A stretch of DNA of 64,000 nt from Prolixibacteraceae bacterium (lineage in GTDB: Bacteria > Bacteroidota > Bacteroidia > Bacteroidales > Prolixibacteraceae), in the NCBI GenBank assembly GCA_036504555.1, contig DASXUZ010000080.1:4003-68002 (forward strand). The letters are read 5' to 3'. The translations under genes were made by a program, and so were the position numbers. Within the stretch, counting starts at the first letter, position 1, and each line of letters begins with the position of its first letter. The notes below the pieces were generated by a model. It did not search any database and had not been told where the DNA came from. It saw only the letters and a program-made list of their open reading frames with translations. This document shows positions 2,217 through 61,276 of this stretch, one piece after another.

Positions 2217-4520
2217 ATGGAAAATTCAAAACGGAACGATGCATTACGAACCGATGCATTAAATTATCACAAGGAAGGCAGACCGGGCAAGATACAGGTG
2301 GTACCGACTAAACCTTACAGTACGCAACGCGATTTATCATTGGCTTATTCACCGGGCGTGGCCATCCCTTGCCTCGAAATAGAAAAAGATCAGCAACTTG
2401 CTTACGATTACACAGCCAAAGGAAACCTCGTGGCGGTCATTTCAAACGGCACGGCCGTGCTTGGATTAGGCGACATAGGAGCCCTGGCCGGAAAGCCAGT
2501 GATGGAGGGCAAAGGTTTGCTGTTCAAAATATTTGCCGACATCGATGTATTCGATATTGAAGTAGATGAGAAAGATCCTGCAAAGTTCATTGAAGTTGTA
2601 AAAGCCATTTCTTGCACTTTTGGAGGTATTAACCTTGAAGATATTAAAGCCCCTGAATGTTTTGAAATTGAAGAAAAACTCAAGGAAGCCCTGGACATTC
2701 CAATCATGCATGACGATCAGCATGGAACTGCCATCATTTCCGGGGCAGGATTGCTCAATGCCCTTGAAATTGTTGGAAAGAAAATCGAAGATGTCAGAAT
2801 TGTTGTCAATGGCGCAGGCGCTTCTGCATCTGCCTGTTCATTGTTATACATCCGTCTGGGAGCCGATCCTAAAAAGCTGGTCATGGTGGATAGTAAAGGT
2901 GTCATTTCTGTACGCCGTACCGATCTGAACAGCCGCAAGAAACCATTTGCTACCGAGCTTCCCTGCAATACGCTTGCCGAAGCAGTTGCAGGTGCTGATG
3001 TATTCCTGGGACTTTCAGTGGCTGATATTCTTACTCAAGATATGGTTCGCAGCATGGCAGAGAACCCCATTGTGTTTGCCCTGGCCAACCCAAATCCTGA
3101 AATTTCGTATACCCTTGCCATTGAATCACGTCCTGATTTGATTTTTGCCACTGGCCGAAGCGATCATCCCAACCAGGTAAACAATGTACTTGGATTTCCT
3201 TATATTTTCCGGGGCGCGCTCGATGTGCGGTCAACGGGTATTAACGAAGAGATGAAAGTGGCCGCGGTGCGTGCCATCGCTGAGCTGGCCAAGAAGCCTG
3301 TTCCCGAAGTGGTAACTGCAGCTTACAACACCACTCACCTCAGTTTCGGACGCCAATATATCATTCCAAAACCATTGGATCCCCGCTTACTCGTGACTGT
3401 TGCCCCTGCCGTTGCAAAGGCGGCCATGGAAAGCGGTATCGCCCGCAAACCAATCCTGGATTGGAATAAATATGCCGAAGAATTGCGCCAGCGAATGGGA
3501 CTTGACAACAAGCTAATCCGTGGACTGACTGAAAAAGCAAAAGAAAATCCAAAACGGGTGGTTTTTGCTGAAGCCAACCACATTAACATGCTGAAAGCCG
3601 CACAGGTCGCCCGTGCTGAAGGTATTTGCATCCCTATTCTTTTGGGAAATGAGGAAATTCTTGAGAAACGTTTCCGCAAGCATAGCATCGAACTTGATGG
3701 GGTTGAAATCGTTAATCTTCGCCACGATCGCGAAGAACCCAACCGCAAACGATATGCAAAGATGCTGACCGCCAAACGTCAACGCGAAGGCATGACCTAC
3801 AATGAGGCATACGAAAAGATGTTCGACCGCAACTATTTTGGAATGATGATGGTCGAAGCAGGCGATGCTGATGCCTTTATCACCGGCGTATATACCAAAT
3901 TTCAGGATGCCATTATCCCGGCCATCGAAATTGTTGGCATGCGCGATGGCTTGAGTCATATTGGAGGAATGAACATTGTTACCACCAAGCTCGGAACCTT
4001 CTTCTTTGCTGATACCATGGTTAACAACCACCCTTCGAAAGAAACCTTGATTGATATTGCCAAGCTGACCCATGACGCCGTCAAACTTTTCAATACAAAG
4101 CCAGTGATGGCCATGCTTTCTTATTCCAATTTTGGGGAACGAAATGTAGGTAGTCCAGCCATGGTTCATGATGCTGTTGATTATCTTCACAAGAACAATC
4201 CGGGAATGATGATTGATGGAGAAATGCAGATGAACTTTGCACTCGACCGTGAATTGCGTCACGAGAAATTCCCATTCTCCAAGATTGACGGAATGAATGT
4301 AAATACACTCATTTTCCCCAACCTAAGCTCATCGAGTATTGCCCATAAGCTGATGTTGGAAATGGGAATGTGTGAAACCATCGGACCAATCCAAATGGGC
4401 CTGACCAAACCAATCCATATCCTGAATGTGGAAAGTTCGGTTCGTGATATCTTGAATATGGTCACAATCGCTGTCATCGATGCCCAGGTAGAGGAACAGA
4501 AACTGAAAAACATTCAGTAA
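2217..4520 (+). CDS. maeB: NADP-dependent malic enzyme with C-terminal phosphotransacetylase-like domain
   Basis: LSLAYSPGVA, NGTAVLGLG, GKPVMEGK, INLEDI, HDDQHGTA, then a PTA-like domain (KRVVFAE...DGEMQ); 767 aa. Confidence 0.96.
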   Translation: MENSKRNDALRTDALNYHKEGRPGKIQVVPTKPYSTQRDLSLAYSPGVAIPCLEIEKDQQLAYDYTAKGNLVAVISNGTAVLGLGDIGALAGKPVMEGKGLLFKIFADIDVFDIEVDEKDPAKFIEVVKAISCTFGGINLEDIKAPECFEIEEKLKEALDIPIMHDDQHGTAIISGAGLLNALEIVGKKIEDVRIVVNGAGASASACSLLYIRLGADPKKLVMVDSKGVISVRRTDLNSRKKPFATELPCNTLAEAVAGADVFLGLSVADILTQDMVRSMAENPIVFALANPNPEISYTLAIESRPDLIFATGRSDHPNQVNNVLGFPYIFRGALDVRSTGINEEMKVAAVRAIAELAKKPVPEVVTAAYNTTHLSFGRQYIIPKPLDPRLLVTVAPAVAKAAMESGIARKPILDWNKYAEELRQRMGLDNKLIRGLTEKAKENPKRVVFAEANHINMLKAAQVARAEGICIPILLGNEEILEKRFRKHSIELDGVEIVNLRHDREEPNRKRYAKMLTAKRQREGMTYNEAYEKMFDRNYFGMMMVEAGDADAFITGVYTKFQDAIIPAIEIVGMRDGLSHIGGMNIVTTKLGTFFFADTMVNNHPSKETLIDIAKLTHDAVKLFNTKPVMAMLSYSNFGERNVGSPAMVHDAVDYLHKNNPGMMIDGEMQMNFALDRELRHEKFPFSKIDGMNVNTLIFPNLSSSSIAHKLMLEMGMCETIGPIQMGLTKPIHILNVESSVRDILNMVTIAVIDAQVEEQKLKNIQ

Positions 4521-4566: not shown

Positions 4567-4596
4567 AAGCCTCCTTGGTTCATCCCAAGGAGGCTT
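4567..4596 (+). terminator. Intrinsic terminator downstream of maeB
   Basis: Perfect 12-bp stem AAGCCTCCTTGG / CCAAGGAGGCTT with a 6-nt loop, followed by a T-rich run. Confidence 0.85.
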
Positions 4597-4625
4597 ATTT
4601 ATTTTTGCCAATACTACCAGCACCC

Positions 4626-4747
4626 TATGCCAGGGCTATTGCATCTGTAATCTATCTGTAATCTATCTGTAATGTATCTGTATTCTATAATACAGATACA
4701 TTACAGATAGATTACAGATAGATTACAGATGCAATAGCCCTGGCATA
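4626..4747. repeat. Perfect 122-bp palindrome (59-bp arms, 4-nt loop CTAT) built from 11-bp units ATCTGTAATCT
   Basis: Arm 4626-4684 is the exact reverse complement of 4689-4747. Each arm holds about 4 tandem 11-mers. Confidence 0.97.
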
Positions 4748-4830
4748 AGGCCTTGGTAAAAAAATGCTGTGGCAATTTGACATCCATGGTCATCTTAAAA
4801 TCTAGAATAAAATCAGGGTATTTATTTTTC

Positions 4831-7353
4831 TTACAATTTAATTTCAAACTTAGCCCGCAGACCAAAGCTTGGCGCTCCCAATACAGATTCTGGGGTAACT
4901 CGCCAAATAGCTTCTACCCTGAAAAGACGGAAGATGTTCTCGACACCGGCTCCCAATTCAATATATGGATTGGTCATTTGGCTTACCCCGATTGGAAATT
5001 CAACAATTTGCTGGTGCTTATCGCTCAGCGAACCAATCATTGCCTTGGCTGAAAACACTTCTCGTAACCCGGTTTTTTTCAACAAGGGCAGACGATTGAA
5101 TACAAACCCGTTCAGATGATATTCAAGGTAAGCATGCAAATATTTATCGTGGACATATTCCAGAAAGTTCAACATGTTGAAGTCGTATGAATATAGGCCA
5201 AATGTCTCGTTTCCGCGAGGAATGTCAAGCATGGTGTATGGAAGCTTTCCAAAGTAGATTCCCCCTTCAAGGGCGTAATTTAAGCCCGTCTGGCCAAGCA
5301 TGACGTTTTGGGCAATGGTACTGAAAACATGTCCATAATAATTGTCCCTGCCCGAATAGAAAACCTTACCCCCACCCAGTGATAGGTGGATAATGGGATA
5401 ATTGGTGGCCATATAGACGCGCAGAAATTTGTCATCGATTACCTTTTCCTTCCACGAAAATCGGTTGTCGATACTTACATCAAAAGCCGAGACTTGATTT
5501 ACCGAACTTCCAGCCCGAAGAAACGGATAGAATTCAGGGGAATAATGCCGGGTGTAATTGGCACTCAGCTTATTCAGAAAGCCGGGATGCCATTCATATT
5601 CATACGAGGCAGCCGTCTTTTGTTCCCTGAATAGTTCGTCGAGTTCATCACGTTTGAAAATCTGGGAGATGATGTTGTTCTCTGTTGGAGAAAGTGCATT
5701 CTCATAGAGAAACAGAATTTTTTCATTTTCGCCCGAACGGATGATTTTATCGTCGTAGGAAATTTTTGCTACTTGTCGGTGAATGGTTGGAAACTTGTAT
5801 CCAAAACCAGCCATACCGTTCACCTTTTTATTGAGGAACCCATAACCAAGTCCTCCCCAAAGCATATAACGGGTACTGATTTCGCTACTGGTTCGGACTC
5901 CTGCAAACAAGTGGATTCCTTCGACCTTGTTGGAGGAAATGGTATTGGGATAGGGCCCGAATTCCAATTTACCCAGGTCGTAATAGCCAGTCATGACCAT
6001 ACGGACCAGGTTATCTACAAATTTGACTGTTCCGATCCGGCTCACCGAATCAATGGTAGCGCTTATTTCGTGTTCGCGCTGGTTGAGCTCTTCAAGCCGG
6101 TGCGATTGCCAGTAGGTATTGTCACGTTCGGTGGCATCGGGAAGCTTGATCGTTTCGTATTTTCCCGTGGCAGTTGAAAGTTTAACATTTGAGGCTTGAT
6201 TGACTGTCACACTATCAATGACCGAGGACTGGGTAAAAAACAGGCTGACAGGCTTCTTTGATGGATTATTTTTTAAAGGAACATAGTTGAAAACGGCATC
6301 AATCTGATTTCTTCTGAAAAATGGAATCGAATCGTTGACCAATTGGTAGTTGCTTTTTAAGCGCATACTTTTCAGGAAATTCAGGTAGCTGGTGTTGGCC
6401 AGGGTGCCGTCAATTTCAAGAAGCGAATAATTCTTATTTTCGGTAATCATATATCCTTTAAATACCCTGTCGCCAGCCCGCCGGGGAATAAAATGAATTT
6501 TATACTCTTTCCGACCGGCCTGAACTGTACTATCCACTAAAAAATACTTGTAATAAAACCATCCGTTGTCAGCCAATGGACTCACGAAATTTTGGGAGAA
6601 CAAGTTGATGAAATTGTCATAAAAATTCAACTCTATATCCAGGGCACTGGTATAACCTGAAATTTCATAGTCGTCAAGAACGCCTACACCGGAAGTTTTA
6701 TCAGCCAACACGGTAGATTTTTGTTTGCTGGGATTTTTTTGAAATTCATTAAAAACAAGCTGTTCCGAAAAATAGATCGGTAGATACCTTGAACTATCGA
6801 GGTCTGTTTTAAATACAGACTGGTTGCTTCTGAAAGCTCTTGAATTAATCATTTTATCACCCACATTGCGAAGATGATACTCCCATTTGGTGTATTTCCG
6901 ATACGAATAACGGGGGTATTTGGAGGGGTTATTTTGTTTTTTGTGATCGGTCATTTCTTTCAAAAGTCGTCTCACAGGGCCCTCATCAGGCTTTATTTTT
7001 ACTTCTGAAATCATGATCAATTCCGGCATCATCGTTACTGTCAGCACGTTCGATGTGAACGGCTTTATTGCAATGGTTTTAGGGATATAACCAACTGCAG
7101 AGAAATTAACTGAATCAACCTTTGCCTTGCTAGTGAGTTGAAAGTGTCCCAGGGTATCGGTTGAAACGCCAATTTGGGTATTTTTGAATACCACACTAAT
7201 GTATGGCACGGGCTGTCCTGTTTTTTGATCGGTCACCTTCCCGCTGACAATGGTAGGCTGCGAAAGAGCTGTTCCAAAGGCAAATAGCAACAATATTAAC
7301 AATGGAATTTCGCGGCTAACGAAAGTCTCCACTGAGAGATATTTTCTGTACAT
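4831..7353 (-). CDS. Carboxypeptidase-regulatory-like domain + DUF5686-type outer-membrane protein
   Basis: Signal peptide, TIVSGKVTDQKTGQPVPYISV...GVSTDTLGHF N-domain, and a beta-barrel-like C-terminus (YIELGAGVENIFRLFRVEAIWR...FEIKL). Confidence 0.85.
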   Translation of the reverse strand: MYRKYLSVETFVSREIPLLILLLFAFGTALSQPTIVSGKVTDQKTGQPVPYISVVFKNTQIGVSTDTLGHFQLTSKAKVDSVNFSAVGYIPKTIAIKPFTSNVLTVTMMPELIMISEVKIKPDEGPVRRLLKEMTDHKKQNNPSKYPRYSYRKYTKWEYHLRNVGDKMINSRAFRSNQSVFKTDLDSSRYLPIYFSEQLVFNEFQKNPSKQKSTVLADKTSGVGVLDDYEISGYTSALDIELNFYDNFINLFSQNFVSPLADNGWFYYKYFLVDSTVQAGRKEYKIHFIPRRAGDRVFKGYMITENKNYSLLEIDGTLANTSYLNFLKSMRLKSNYQLVNDSIPFFRRNQIDAVFNYVPLKNNPSKKPVSLFFTQSSVIDSVTVNQASNVKLSTATGKYETIKLPDATERDNTYWQSHRLEELNQREHEISATIDSVSRIGTVKFVDNLVRMVMTGYYDLGKLEFGPYPNTISSNKVEGIHLFAGVRTSSEISTRYMLWGGLGYGFLNKKVNGMAGFGYKFPTIHRQVAKISYDDKIIRSGENEKILFLYENALSPTENNIISQIFKRDELDELFREQKTAASYEYEWHPGFLNKLSANYTRHYSPEFYPFLRAGSSVNQVSAFDVSIDNRFSWKEKVIDDKFLRVYMATNYPIIHLSLGGGKVFYSGRDNYYGHVFSTIAQNVMLGQTGLNYALEGGIYFGKLPYTMLDIPRGNETFGLYSYDFNMLNFLEYVHDKYLHAYLEYHLNGFVFNRLPLLKKTGLREVFSAKAMIGSLSDKHQQIVEFPIGVSQMTNPYIELGAGVENIFRLFRVEAIWRVTPESVLGAPSFGLRAKFEIKL

Positions 7354-14261: not shown

Positions 14262-14433
14262 TTGCACCGTTTGCACGATTTGCACGATTTGCACGCCTGA
14301 TAGTTTTATTTGATCCAGTTCAATGGTTTGTTCTTTTGAGAAAGGGAAAGTAGAAAAAGGGAGAAAATGTAAATCGTGAGAATCATGCAAACCATGCAAA
14401 TCGTGCAAAACGTGCAAAACGTGCAAAGTGCTC
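14262..14433. repeat. Foldback element family 1, copy A: 4x TTGCACGAT-like 9-mers, spacer, 7 inverted 9-mers
   Basis: TTGCACCGT TTGCACGAT TTGCACGAT TTGCACGCC ... TGCAAATCG TGCAAAACG TGCAAAACG TGCAAAGTG CTC. Homologous over its whole length to 37426-37569. Confidence 0.92.
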
Positions 14434-23384: not shown

Positions 23385-23488
23385 CAGTTAGTTTTTATAT
23401 CCCTCATGGATGGTTCATACATGGTTTATGGATCTAAACATACACAAAGCATGCACGAACTATGCACGAACAAAGTAAAAACCATGAA
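23385..23488 (-). repeat. Foldback element family 2 (104 bp), copy A
   Basis: The minus strand reads TTCATGGTTTTTA CTTTGTTCGTG CATAGTTCGTG CATGCTTTGTG ... TAAAAACTAACTG and aligns without gaps to 61173-61276. Confidence 0.9.
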
Positions 23489-34271: not shown

Positions 34272-34382
34272 CTGCAAAATTTGACCAAAATAAGGGAAAA
34301 TTAACCACCCAAATATGAAGCCAATATTATTTTATTGTGCGGGAAGAACAATTTATTATAAATTTATTGCCAGTAAGGGATT

Positions 34383-34440
34383 AAAAAGGAGTGTTCTGAA
34401 AGTCTGTCTCGGGAAACAGACTTTCAGAACACTCCTTTTT
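34383..34440. terminator. Long perfect hairpin terminator downstream of gdhA
   Basis: 25-bp perfect stem (AAAAAGGAGTGTTCTGAAAGTCTGT and its complement) with an 8-nt loop. Confidence 0.85.
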
Positions 34441-34463
34441 ATTATTGCTATCGAATTAACCGA

Positions 34464-37354: not shown

Positions 37355-37425
37355 AGCTTCAGTTGATTTTTGGTTTTGAGATTCCAAATGTAATGAAAAA
37401 AACTATTTTGTAATTTTCATCATTT

Positions 37426-37569
37426 TTGCACACTTTGCACGATTTGCACGATTTGCACGGCTGTTGTTTTTAATCAATTTTGGTTCAAAGACTTGTTTTT
37501 TTGAGAAGGTGGAATAGAAAAGAGAGAAAATGCACATCGTACAAAACGTGCAAATCGTGCAAAGTGCTC
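37426..37569. repeat. Foldback element family 1, copy B (4 + 4 nine-mers)
   Basis: TTGCACACT TTGCACGAT TTGCACGAT TTGCACGGC ... TGCACATCG TACAAAACG TGCAAATCG TGCAAAGTG CTC, with the same central spacer as copy A. Confidence 0.92.
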
Positions 37570-44798: not shown

Positions 44799-44902
44799 TT
44801 CATAGTTTTTACGCTCTTCGTACTAGGTTCGTGCATGGTTCGTGCATGTAAACATACATAATCATTGCAGGATCATGGTATCAATTCAGTAAAAACCAGG
44901 TA
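44799..44902 (+). repeat. Foldback element family 2 (104 bp), copy B
   Basis: TTCATAGTTTTTA ... GGTTCGTGCATGGTTCGTGCATG ... TAAAAACCAGGTA; ungapped alignment to copy C. Confidence 0.88.
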
Positions 44903-56464: not shown

Positions 56465-56535
56465 GCAATAACTACAATAACTTCAATAACGACAACAATG
56501 CCAATCGTAGTTATTGAAGTTATTGAAGTTATTGC
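56465..56535. repeat. Foldback of 9-bp units (CAATAACTT x3, 13-bp spacer, inverted x3)
   Basis: The 29-bp arms 56465-56493 and 56507-56535 match at 27/29 positions. Confidence 0.9.
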
Positions 56536-60044: not shown

Positions 60045-60290
60045 ATGAAGTTCTATTCCTACGTTATATACTCGCAAACATCGGGTGCATTTTATTACGG
60101 TTATTTCGAAGATCTTGAAAAAGCACTCGAAATGCACAATTCAAACCTGATTTCACCCACCAAAGAGCGCGGCCCTTGGGTGCTGATGTATTCAGAAAGC
60201 TTTGAAACCCGGTTAAAAGCCATTCGGCAGATGAGTTTCTACCGATCGGTCAAAGGTCAAAGGTTTCTGAAAAATATGCTCAATTTCTAA
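60045..60290 (+). CDS. Small stand-alone GIY-YIG (UPF0213-like) protein, apparently lacking catalytic residues
   Basis: FYSYVIYS...FYYG..DLEKALEMHN...GPWVLMYSESFETRLKAIRQM follows the UPF0213 pattern. Confidence 0.8.
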   Translation: MKFYSYVIYSQTSGAFYYGYFEDLEKALEMHNSNLISPTKERGPWVLMYSESFETRLKAIRQMSFYRSVKGQRFLKNMLNF

Positions 60291-61172: not shown

Positions 61173-61276
61173 TTCATGGTTTTTACATAGTTCGTGCATA
61201 GTTCGTGCATGCTTCGTGCATGTAGAGATATACAAACCATGCACGATTTATGCATAAATCATCTAAAAACCATGAA
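61173..61276 (+). repeat. Foldback element family 2 (104 bp), copy C, with perfect 13-bp terminal inverted repeats
   Basis: TTCATGGTTTTTA CATAGTTCGTG CATAGTTCGTG CATGCTTCGTG CATG...CATGCACGA...TAAAAACCATGAA. Confidence 0.93.

Follow-up and report, generated by a model that had tools for sequence, protein, structure and literature searches.

The perfect 122-bp palindrome at positions 4626-4747 of the window, the 64,000-nucleotide stretch of Prolixibacteraceae DNA analyzed here, belongs, as a complete copy, to a family of about 70-80 palindromes dispersed through its genome. The initial annotation of this DNA had treated the palindrome as singular, and it was the search of the whole genome that placed it in a family. 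Members of this family, here called family A, are gene-less, intergenic foldback elements that are restricted to one lineage. Their symmetry probably arises because one arm is templated on the other.

The palindrome and its locus

The palindrome is made up of two 59-nt arms (4626-4684 and 4689-4747) around the 4-nt loop CTAT (4685-4688). The arms match with zero mismatches as assembled, where a de Bruijn assembler could mask a single arm-arm mismatch. The left arm contains three full 11-mers, at 4645-4655, 4656-4666, and 4667-4677, followed by a fourth unit of only 7 nt (4678-4684). In order, the units of each arm are CTGTAATCTAT, CTGTAATCTAT, CTGTAATGTAT, and CTGTATT. The variant unit, with GTAT in place of CTAT, is mirrored in the right arm. 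The arm length, the loop, and the mirrored variant given in the initial annotation all match the assembled sequence. When four mismatches are allowed, the palindrome grows to 70-nt arms (4615-4758) that are 94% complementary. Folded as single-stranded DNA, the palindrome reaches -70.5 kcal/mol, compared with -13 ± 2.7 kcal/mol for 200 shuffles (z = -21.5).

The locus is composed of two convergent genes with the palindrome between their 3' ends (Table 1). The product of the left gene, maeB, matches the NCBIfam model NF009501 with E = 2e-228, below the curated cut-off. On the right, the N-terminus of the receptor-like protein matches the SusC/RagA model TIGR04056 (E = 1e-11). The convergent arrangement of maeB with the same receptor gene is also found in the congeners G041 and G055. 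Between the two genes, the hairpin at 4567-4596 and its T-run have a terminator-like score on both strands, and the stem and T-run are kept in both congeners. The palindrome begins 30 nt past the terminator stem. It is followed by AAGGCC and has a T-run on neither strand, and only 4567-4596 qualifies as an intrinsic terminator. Because the terminator is real and conserved and the palindrome lies beyond it, the palindrome is extra to termination, as had been proposed from the window alone. It lies between the receptor stop codon and the shared terminator, and thus within the predicted 3' untranslated region of the receptor gene, where it may affect the receptor mRNA. Elsewhere in the window, a hairpin at 34382-34441 has 29-nt arms that are 97% complementary, a 2-nt center, an A-run before it, and a T-run after it. 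This hairpin looks like a strong bidirectional terminator.

The region downstream of maeB was compared with that of the relatives, a check that the initial annotation had suggested, and the site is empty in G041 and G055. Only ~25 nt separate the shared terminator from the receptor stop codon in these two genomes. They are ~80-86% alike in coding DNA, which is too diverged for insertion boundaries to be placed at the base level. Within the extra DNA of the window (4607-4825), the sequence flanking the palindrome is unique within the genome, and the AT-rich 10-nt sequence ATTTATTTTT is present at both edges. A larger composite element was considered and rejected, since the flanks past the palindrome are unique and a ATTTATTTTT-like direct repeat is missing in a family-wide test of 47 aligned copies.

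Table 1. Features of the locus and of the family-A copy (window coordinates), and PF05635 genes of the same genome (contig coordinates).
Feature	Position	Strand	Remarks
NADP-dependent malic enzyme gene (MaeB type, malic enzyme and PTA-like domain), left neighbor	2217..4520	+	767-aa ORF
Bidirectional intrinsic terminator of both convergent genes	4567..4606		12-bp stem, 6-nt loop, T-run
Extra DNA of ~205-220 nt: palindrome and unique flanks	4607..4825		Three-way alignment; absent in G041 and G055
Extended imperfect palindrome	4615..4758		Copy-specific palindromy past the conserved termini
Palindrome	4626..4747		Complete family-A element (4628-4745) plus TA on each side; limits from family information profile
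Left conserved terminus TGCC	4628..4631	+	Information profile, 97 arms
Left copy-specific (variable) stem	4632..4644	+	Exact stem unique in genome
Left array: three 11-mers CTGTAAT[C/G]TAT and innermost 7-mer CTGTATT	4645..4684	+	CTGTAAT core nearly invariant across copies
Center (loop) CTAT	4685..4688		Centers differ greatly among copies
Right array, exact mirror of left array	4689..4728	-	
Right variable stem, exact complement of 4632-4644	4729..4741	-	
Right conserved terminus GGCA	4742..4745	-	Information profile
TonB-dependent receptor-like outer-membrane protein gene, right neighbor	4831..7353	-	840-aa ORF
PF05635 genes, own genome (G000)	C107:26858-27169, C29:211-522, C65:24633-24896, C195:31365-31661		Outside the window

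A dispersed family of intergenic palindromes

A probe of two 11-mer units has 305 matches in the genome (5.24 Mb in 322 contigs, 42.7% G+C), and the reversed control has none. The matches cluster into 88 sites, 5 of which belong to other unit families, and forward units precede reverse units at every cluster. Fifty-six of the copies are complete and internal to a contig; their arms measure 43-84 nt, with 2 mismatches as the median. A further ~25 copies are cut by contig ends, which indicates that the assembler often fails on family A. The total is about 70-80 copies. Their flanks are unique, and the palindrome itself is therefore the repeated unit. A genome search for the ends and arrays had also been proposed in the initial annotation; it returned many dispersed palindromic copies, among which the exact stem of the window copy is unique.

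All 56 family copies are intergenic (57 palindromes were classified), in a genome where long ORFs account for 84% of the DNA. According to a simple long-ORF model, 48 copies have genes on both sides. These genes are tandem at 24 copies, convergent at 13, and divergent at 11, roughly as spacer lengths predict.

The family is shared with the sister species G041 (MAG Prolixibacteraceae bacterium UBA10471), which contains ~35 loci. None of the 48 other congeners has an array match, and the strict pattern is absent from 24 congeners as well as from 16 further families in the same order. When one genome from each of 185,579 species was scanned with the strict pattern, UBA10471 alone matched. Several copies of G041 are missing from the syntenic positions of the own genome, just as the window site is empty in G041; this is a presence/absence pattern of the MITE kind. 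Three other G041 copies share an intergenic region with an own-genome copy. At these shared sites the stems differ, each copy is self-complementary, and the cores follow the consensus of each species. The pattern fits symmetric drift in place together with exchange between copies, at sites where the spacers do not align and the copies are hence not proven orthologous. The ~70-80 dispersed copies, their restriction to intergenic DNA, and the sites occupied in only one of the two sister species suggest that family A behaves as non-autonomous mobile or amplifiable DNA.

Metagenome contigs were also searched. A 25-mer from the 3' end of maeB has no match in them, and the family-A core pattern occurs in four contigs only. 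In three of these the 11-mer, or one similar to it, is simply repeated in tandem; the fourth contains a weak, imperfect relative. Long non-palindromic tandem arrays of the identical 11-mer ATCTGTAATGT are present at positions 1-260 of locus L074 and 2030-2156 of locus L075, both from the unrelated metagenome Ga0123355. These arrays may be a chance identity or a satellite form of the unit.

Each arm starts on the outside with a T(G/A)CC terminus. A stem of ~13 nt that is specific to the copy comes next, then four conserved 11-mers, and the two arms join at a variable center. The information profile of 97 arms has the terminus T-G-C-C at -17 to -14, variable positions from -13 to -5, a G at -4, and a T at -1. 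In the terminus, the C at -14 is conserved in 93% of arms, the C at -15 in 85%, and the G at -16 in 71%. The signal is at background beyond -18, which makes the element ~118 nt long (4628-4745 in the window). The CTGTAAT units hardly vary; each has two polymorphic positions. What had been described as a unique end of the palindrome is not unique in kind, as it is the variable stem of the family, bounded by the conserved TGCC terminus.

The outer stems vary among copies and stay paired within each copy. Complementarity at -9 to -1 is 90% within a copy versus 52% between copies, and for the whole outer stem the values are 82% and 51%. In the flanks (-28 to -19) they are ~47% and 29%. Positions -13 to -5 have 3-4 base types among copies and are paired in 69-90% of copies, with three or four symmetric pair types at each position.

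The cores behave in a similar manner. Five polymorphic core sites form 23 arm haplotypes, and the same haplotype is present on both arms in 32 of 47 copies. The expected number is 4.1, and the maximum in 10,000 random pairings is 13. All four gametes are observed for most pairs of sites, and the core haplotypes are independent of stem subfamilies. Both observations indicate that the family is a mosaic.

Within each copy of family A, the two arms resemble each other far more closely than they resemble any other copy. There are no identical copy pairs: measured over 2 x 55 nt, copies share a median of 92% and at most 96% identity with their nearest paralogue. The arms of the window copy are 100% alike, compared with 89% for its nearest paralogue; of the 47 copies, just 4 have perfect 55-nt arms. 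A near-identical master that transposed recently thus fails to explain the symmetry, and one arm must have served as template for the other, at the birth of the copy or afterwards. Three sources of the perfect symmetry had been offered in the initial annotation: recent origin, active arm-to-arm correction, and an assembly artifact. Recent origin does not agree with the lack of identical copies or with the 96% maximum. Arm-to-arm correction is favored by the difference between 100% and 89% and by stems that covary family-wide.

Palindromy extends past the conserved termini in a manner that is copy-specific and unique in the genome. Insertion into ready-made palindromes was rejected as its source: the genome contains no array-less TGCC...GGCA palindromes, and the extended outer stems are unique. 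These two results argue for outward extension in place.

Family A is one of several palindrome families in this genome. A survey identified 165 long palindromes in at least 14 families, and many of their arms are tandem arrays of 8-11-nt units. Long perfect palindromes are textbook examples of unstable DNA in bacteria, and the initial annotation had expected instability here. The 165 palindromes exist beside intact sbcC and sbcD: SbcD is encoded next to a 1026-aa SbcC-like gene, and both are intact. Loss of SbcCD was therefore rejected as the reason for palindrome tolerance.

In a sister family, the 11-mers are of the CTGATAC type and the innermost unit is CTGTAAC; this family numbers ~45 copies in the own genome, ~14 in G041, and ~20 in the congener G023. 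Its outer stems are copy-specific and self-complementary. The 104-bp family, found in the window at 61173-61276, 44799-44902, and 23385-23488, has ~25 loci genome-wide. Its members have conserved 13-nt terminal inverted repeats (TTCATGGTTTTTA...), TTCGTGCAT-type 11-mers, and a weak foldback (-10 to -22 kcal/mol), and the family is more like a classical MITE than family A is. A parallel in plan between the palindrome and the 104-bp family (an end, 11-mers, and a center) had been noted earlier. It holds only in part, because the 104-bp family has conserved 13-bp terminal repeats and weak arms.

Other repeats of the window belong to further unit types. The palindrome at 56465-56535 has 29-nt arms of three 9-mers (CAATAACTN / NAGTTATTG) and a 13-nt center. 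Its unit type, family C, forms long palindromes on at least four other contigs. Inverted arrays of TTGCACG 9-mers surround a ~70-nt spacer at 14262-14433 and at 37425-37569. Elsewhere, TTGCACG units form outer arms around ACAAAGTRAC arrays, giving nested two-level arms. A stand-alone GIY-YIG ORF at 60051-60224 (89 aa, Pfam E = 1e-6) has no inverted arrays and is followed by a short GGTCAAAGGTCAAAGG downstream. The Y1_Tnp/RAYT-like genes L058 (contig C245), L060 (C283), and L061 (C66) of the same genome (G000) each have their own hairpin repeats. The repeat families that flank them are CCGTCGG...CAAAGGATAG, CCATGGGTGCAACCCATGG, and arrays of CCTTAGTAA 9-mers. The gene on C66 contains an in-frame TAG.

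Proposed arm-to-arm templating and its rivals

The symmetry of family A would be maintained by a process in which one arm templates the other, through intrastrand template switching or hairpin-directed repair during replication. Alternatively, making a new copy could involve synthesis of the second arm on the first. The hairpin may be nucleated by the conserved 11-mer core, and a change in the stem would then be either erased or copied into the partner arm. As an outcome, stems would drift among copies while staying paired within each copy, and palindromy would creep into the flanks. Perfect symmetry would then be a sign of templating and not of youth. Template switching is known to perfect and extend inverted repeats in E. 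coli (PMC7202029) and yeast (PMC8604942, PMC13100816). It fits the pairing gradient of family A, from 100% by the core to ~47% in the flanks, as well as the copy-specific stems and the outward creep. For the 11-mers to be so strongly conserved, there would have to be either exchange among copies or a partner that recognizes their sequence.

Several features bear on how family A might move. Its terminal inverted repeats, T(G/A)CC...GG(C/T)A, are conserved as in MITEs and are only 4-6 nt long. No direct target-site duplication is present among 47 aligned copies; only the self-complementary TA, AT, and GC are seen, which are extended palindromy, though the TA could conceivably be a 2-nt duplication. 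With copies oriented by the central mismatch, the flanks contain no one-sided target motif. A TGATC motif in the left flanks was set aside because it is about as frequent as a rough chance estimate. In the search for a parent or autonomous partner, arms never enclosed a gene or a long spacer, and small contigs bounded by arms were likewise absent. The best-supported description of family A is that of a gene-less foldback element with a REP/MITE-like habit. Mobility in this description is read from the distribution of copies, with no excision or insertion event seen directly.

Two rival explanations attribute the family to a known type of mobile element. In one, which is doubtful, the small four-helix-bundle genes (PF05635, 23S-rRNA-IVS-type) are carried as cassettes flanked by inverted short-unit arrays, and family A is a gene-less miniature that either lost its gene or depends on such a cassette in trans for its movement. 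In the genome, all four PF05635 genes lie between inverted tandem arrays of 8-9-nt and similar units, and two of the unit types also occur as gene-less palindromes. Most of 30 further loci in five congeners (L076-L105) also have flanking arrays, with units of 6-14 nt, some of them 11 nt. However, CTGTAAT or CTGATAC arms flank none of the 4 + 30 loci in the six genus genomes, and the two most abundant palindrome families lack a gene-bearing version. Outside its arrays, family A also has a variable stem and a conserved terminus, in a comparison that covered only the arrays of the cassettes. The link between the cassettes and family A is one of design only. The other explanation, a REPIN-type element that is excised and inserted as single-stranded DNA by a RAYT (REP-associated tyrosine transposase), is unlikely. 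Family A has the extragenic, dispersed hairpins expected of such an element, and its compensatory stem changes, with 3-4 pair types per position, are as reported for REPINs (PMC3116915). The missing target duplication is as expected for HUH enzymes, and three of the four Y1_Tnp genes in the genome are flanked by hairpin repeats of their own. Those repeats, however, belong to other families; the fourth gene has none, and family A flanks none of the four. Close homologues of the repeat-less Y1_Tnp gene are found in 49 of 50 genus genomes (own included), 47 of which lack family A. The element also lacks the GTAG/CGTC tag, having the terminus T(G/A)CC instead, and its conserved part is central and not terminal. 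Its outer arms contain no short palindromes: they fold no better than shuffles (-0.71 versus -0.97 kcal/mol), and a REP-like mini-hairpin ("clover") in each outer arm was rejected on this result.

The remaining rivals assign the symmetry to selection or to error. Neutral arm-to-arm templating and selection for the hairpin would both produce covariation, which by itself does not tell them apart, and a host-selected RNA or DNA hairpin or protein-binding array would keep its symmetry without templating. Such a structure could act in 3' untranslated regions as an RNase III site or exonuclease barrier, or it could present a DNA-binding protein with phased 11-bp sites. The covarying stem, the nearly invariant CTGTAAT units spaced one helical turn apart, and the place of the window copy ahead of the shared terminator, within what is predicted to be the receptor's 3' untranslated region, are all in line with selection. 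Such a role is nevertheless improbable: copies occur at tandem, convergent, and divergent spacers (24/13/11) roughly in proportion to spacer length, with no consistent place; 48 congeners lack the element, as does the orthologous site in relatives; and perfect 60-bp stems are rarely needed for function. In Rfam 15, only matches below the gathering score, to models of plant and animal microRNA precursors, were obtained, as any long hairpin gives. An assembly artifact (a foldback chimera or collapsed graph path) or a unique new palindrome is very unlikely indeed. The ~25 copies that break contigs do show that the assembler struggles with the repeat. Against an artifact, the palindrome stands between two different genes whose convergent arrangement is conserved in relatives, 56 internal copies have unique flanks, and the same design is found in an independently assembled sister genome. 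The third source offered in the initial annotation is thus set aside on synteny, the internal copies, and the second species.

Arm-to-arm templating in a gene-less foldback family is the preferred reading. A more far-reaching version of it, put forward tentatively, is that family A and its sister families represent a distinct bacterial foldback class. Its members would be born perfect by copying of a single arm, or be continuously re-symmetrized on the hairpin, and would be moved by a structure-specific system that is neither RAYT nor DDE and is possibly linked to PF05635. If true, this would give a common origin to unexplained short tandem-repeat hairpins in bacteria, and it would offer a natural model of how long palindromes endure in the presence of SbcCD.

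Family A, the largest of the families, bears a clean signature of arms that evolve together: its termini and its core of tandem units are conserved, and the stem between them is hypervariable yet always paired. It is a natural experiment on palindrome upkeep, with template switching, hairpin repair, and selection as the candidate means. Tandem-unit hairpins around four-helix-bundle genes are a poorly described class, to which family A contributes a gene-less case that is well resolved. In practical terms, such elements break short-read assemblies (~25 contig ends here) and can place 60-bp double-stranded stems into 3' untranslated regions.

Comparison with known systems

REP/REPIN elements are mobilized by RAYT transposases (PMC3116915, Bertels and Rainey 2011; PMC3733652, Di Nocera et al. 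2013). Family A is similar to them in being short, gene-less, extragenic, high-copy, and lineage-restricted, with long hairpins and compensatory stem changes. It is unlike REPINs in its arms of tandem 11-mers and in lacking the GTAG/CGTC tag, a within-arm palindrome, and a flanking RAYT. In REPINs, the terminal REPs are conserved and the spacer varies. In family A this is reversed, as the center is conserved and the flanking stem varies.

MITEs, such as Correia/NEMIS of Neisseria and BrickBuilt of Porphyromonas gingivalis (PMC4596501), are also small, non-coding, dispersed elements with inverted ends, and BrickBuilt also contains internal tandem repeats. A MITE is made up of short terminal repeats around a unique core, whereas family A is a near-perfect palindrome throughout and is found without a target duplication or parent insertion sequence.

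PF05635/S23p cassettes, the ORF-bearing 23S rRNA IVS elements (Coxiella, PMC4990558), have inverted arrays of short tandem units and a long hairpin in common with family A. IVS elements are located in rRNA, whereas family A is intergenic and has an extra stem and terminus.

Quasipalindrome correction (PMC7202029, PMC8604942, PMC13100816) resembles the symmetric drift and outward creep of palindromy in family A. It is known from single reporter sites and gene-scale cases and not from whole repeat families, to which it would be extended here.

Foldback elements of eukaryotes (Drosophila FB, Galileo; PMC4168063) differ from family A in host and scale, being kilobase-sized, with P-superfamily transposases and 7-9-bp target duplications. 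In architecture, with long inverted arms of short tandem subrepeats, they are by analogy the closest known counterpart of family A.
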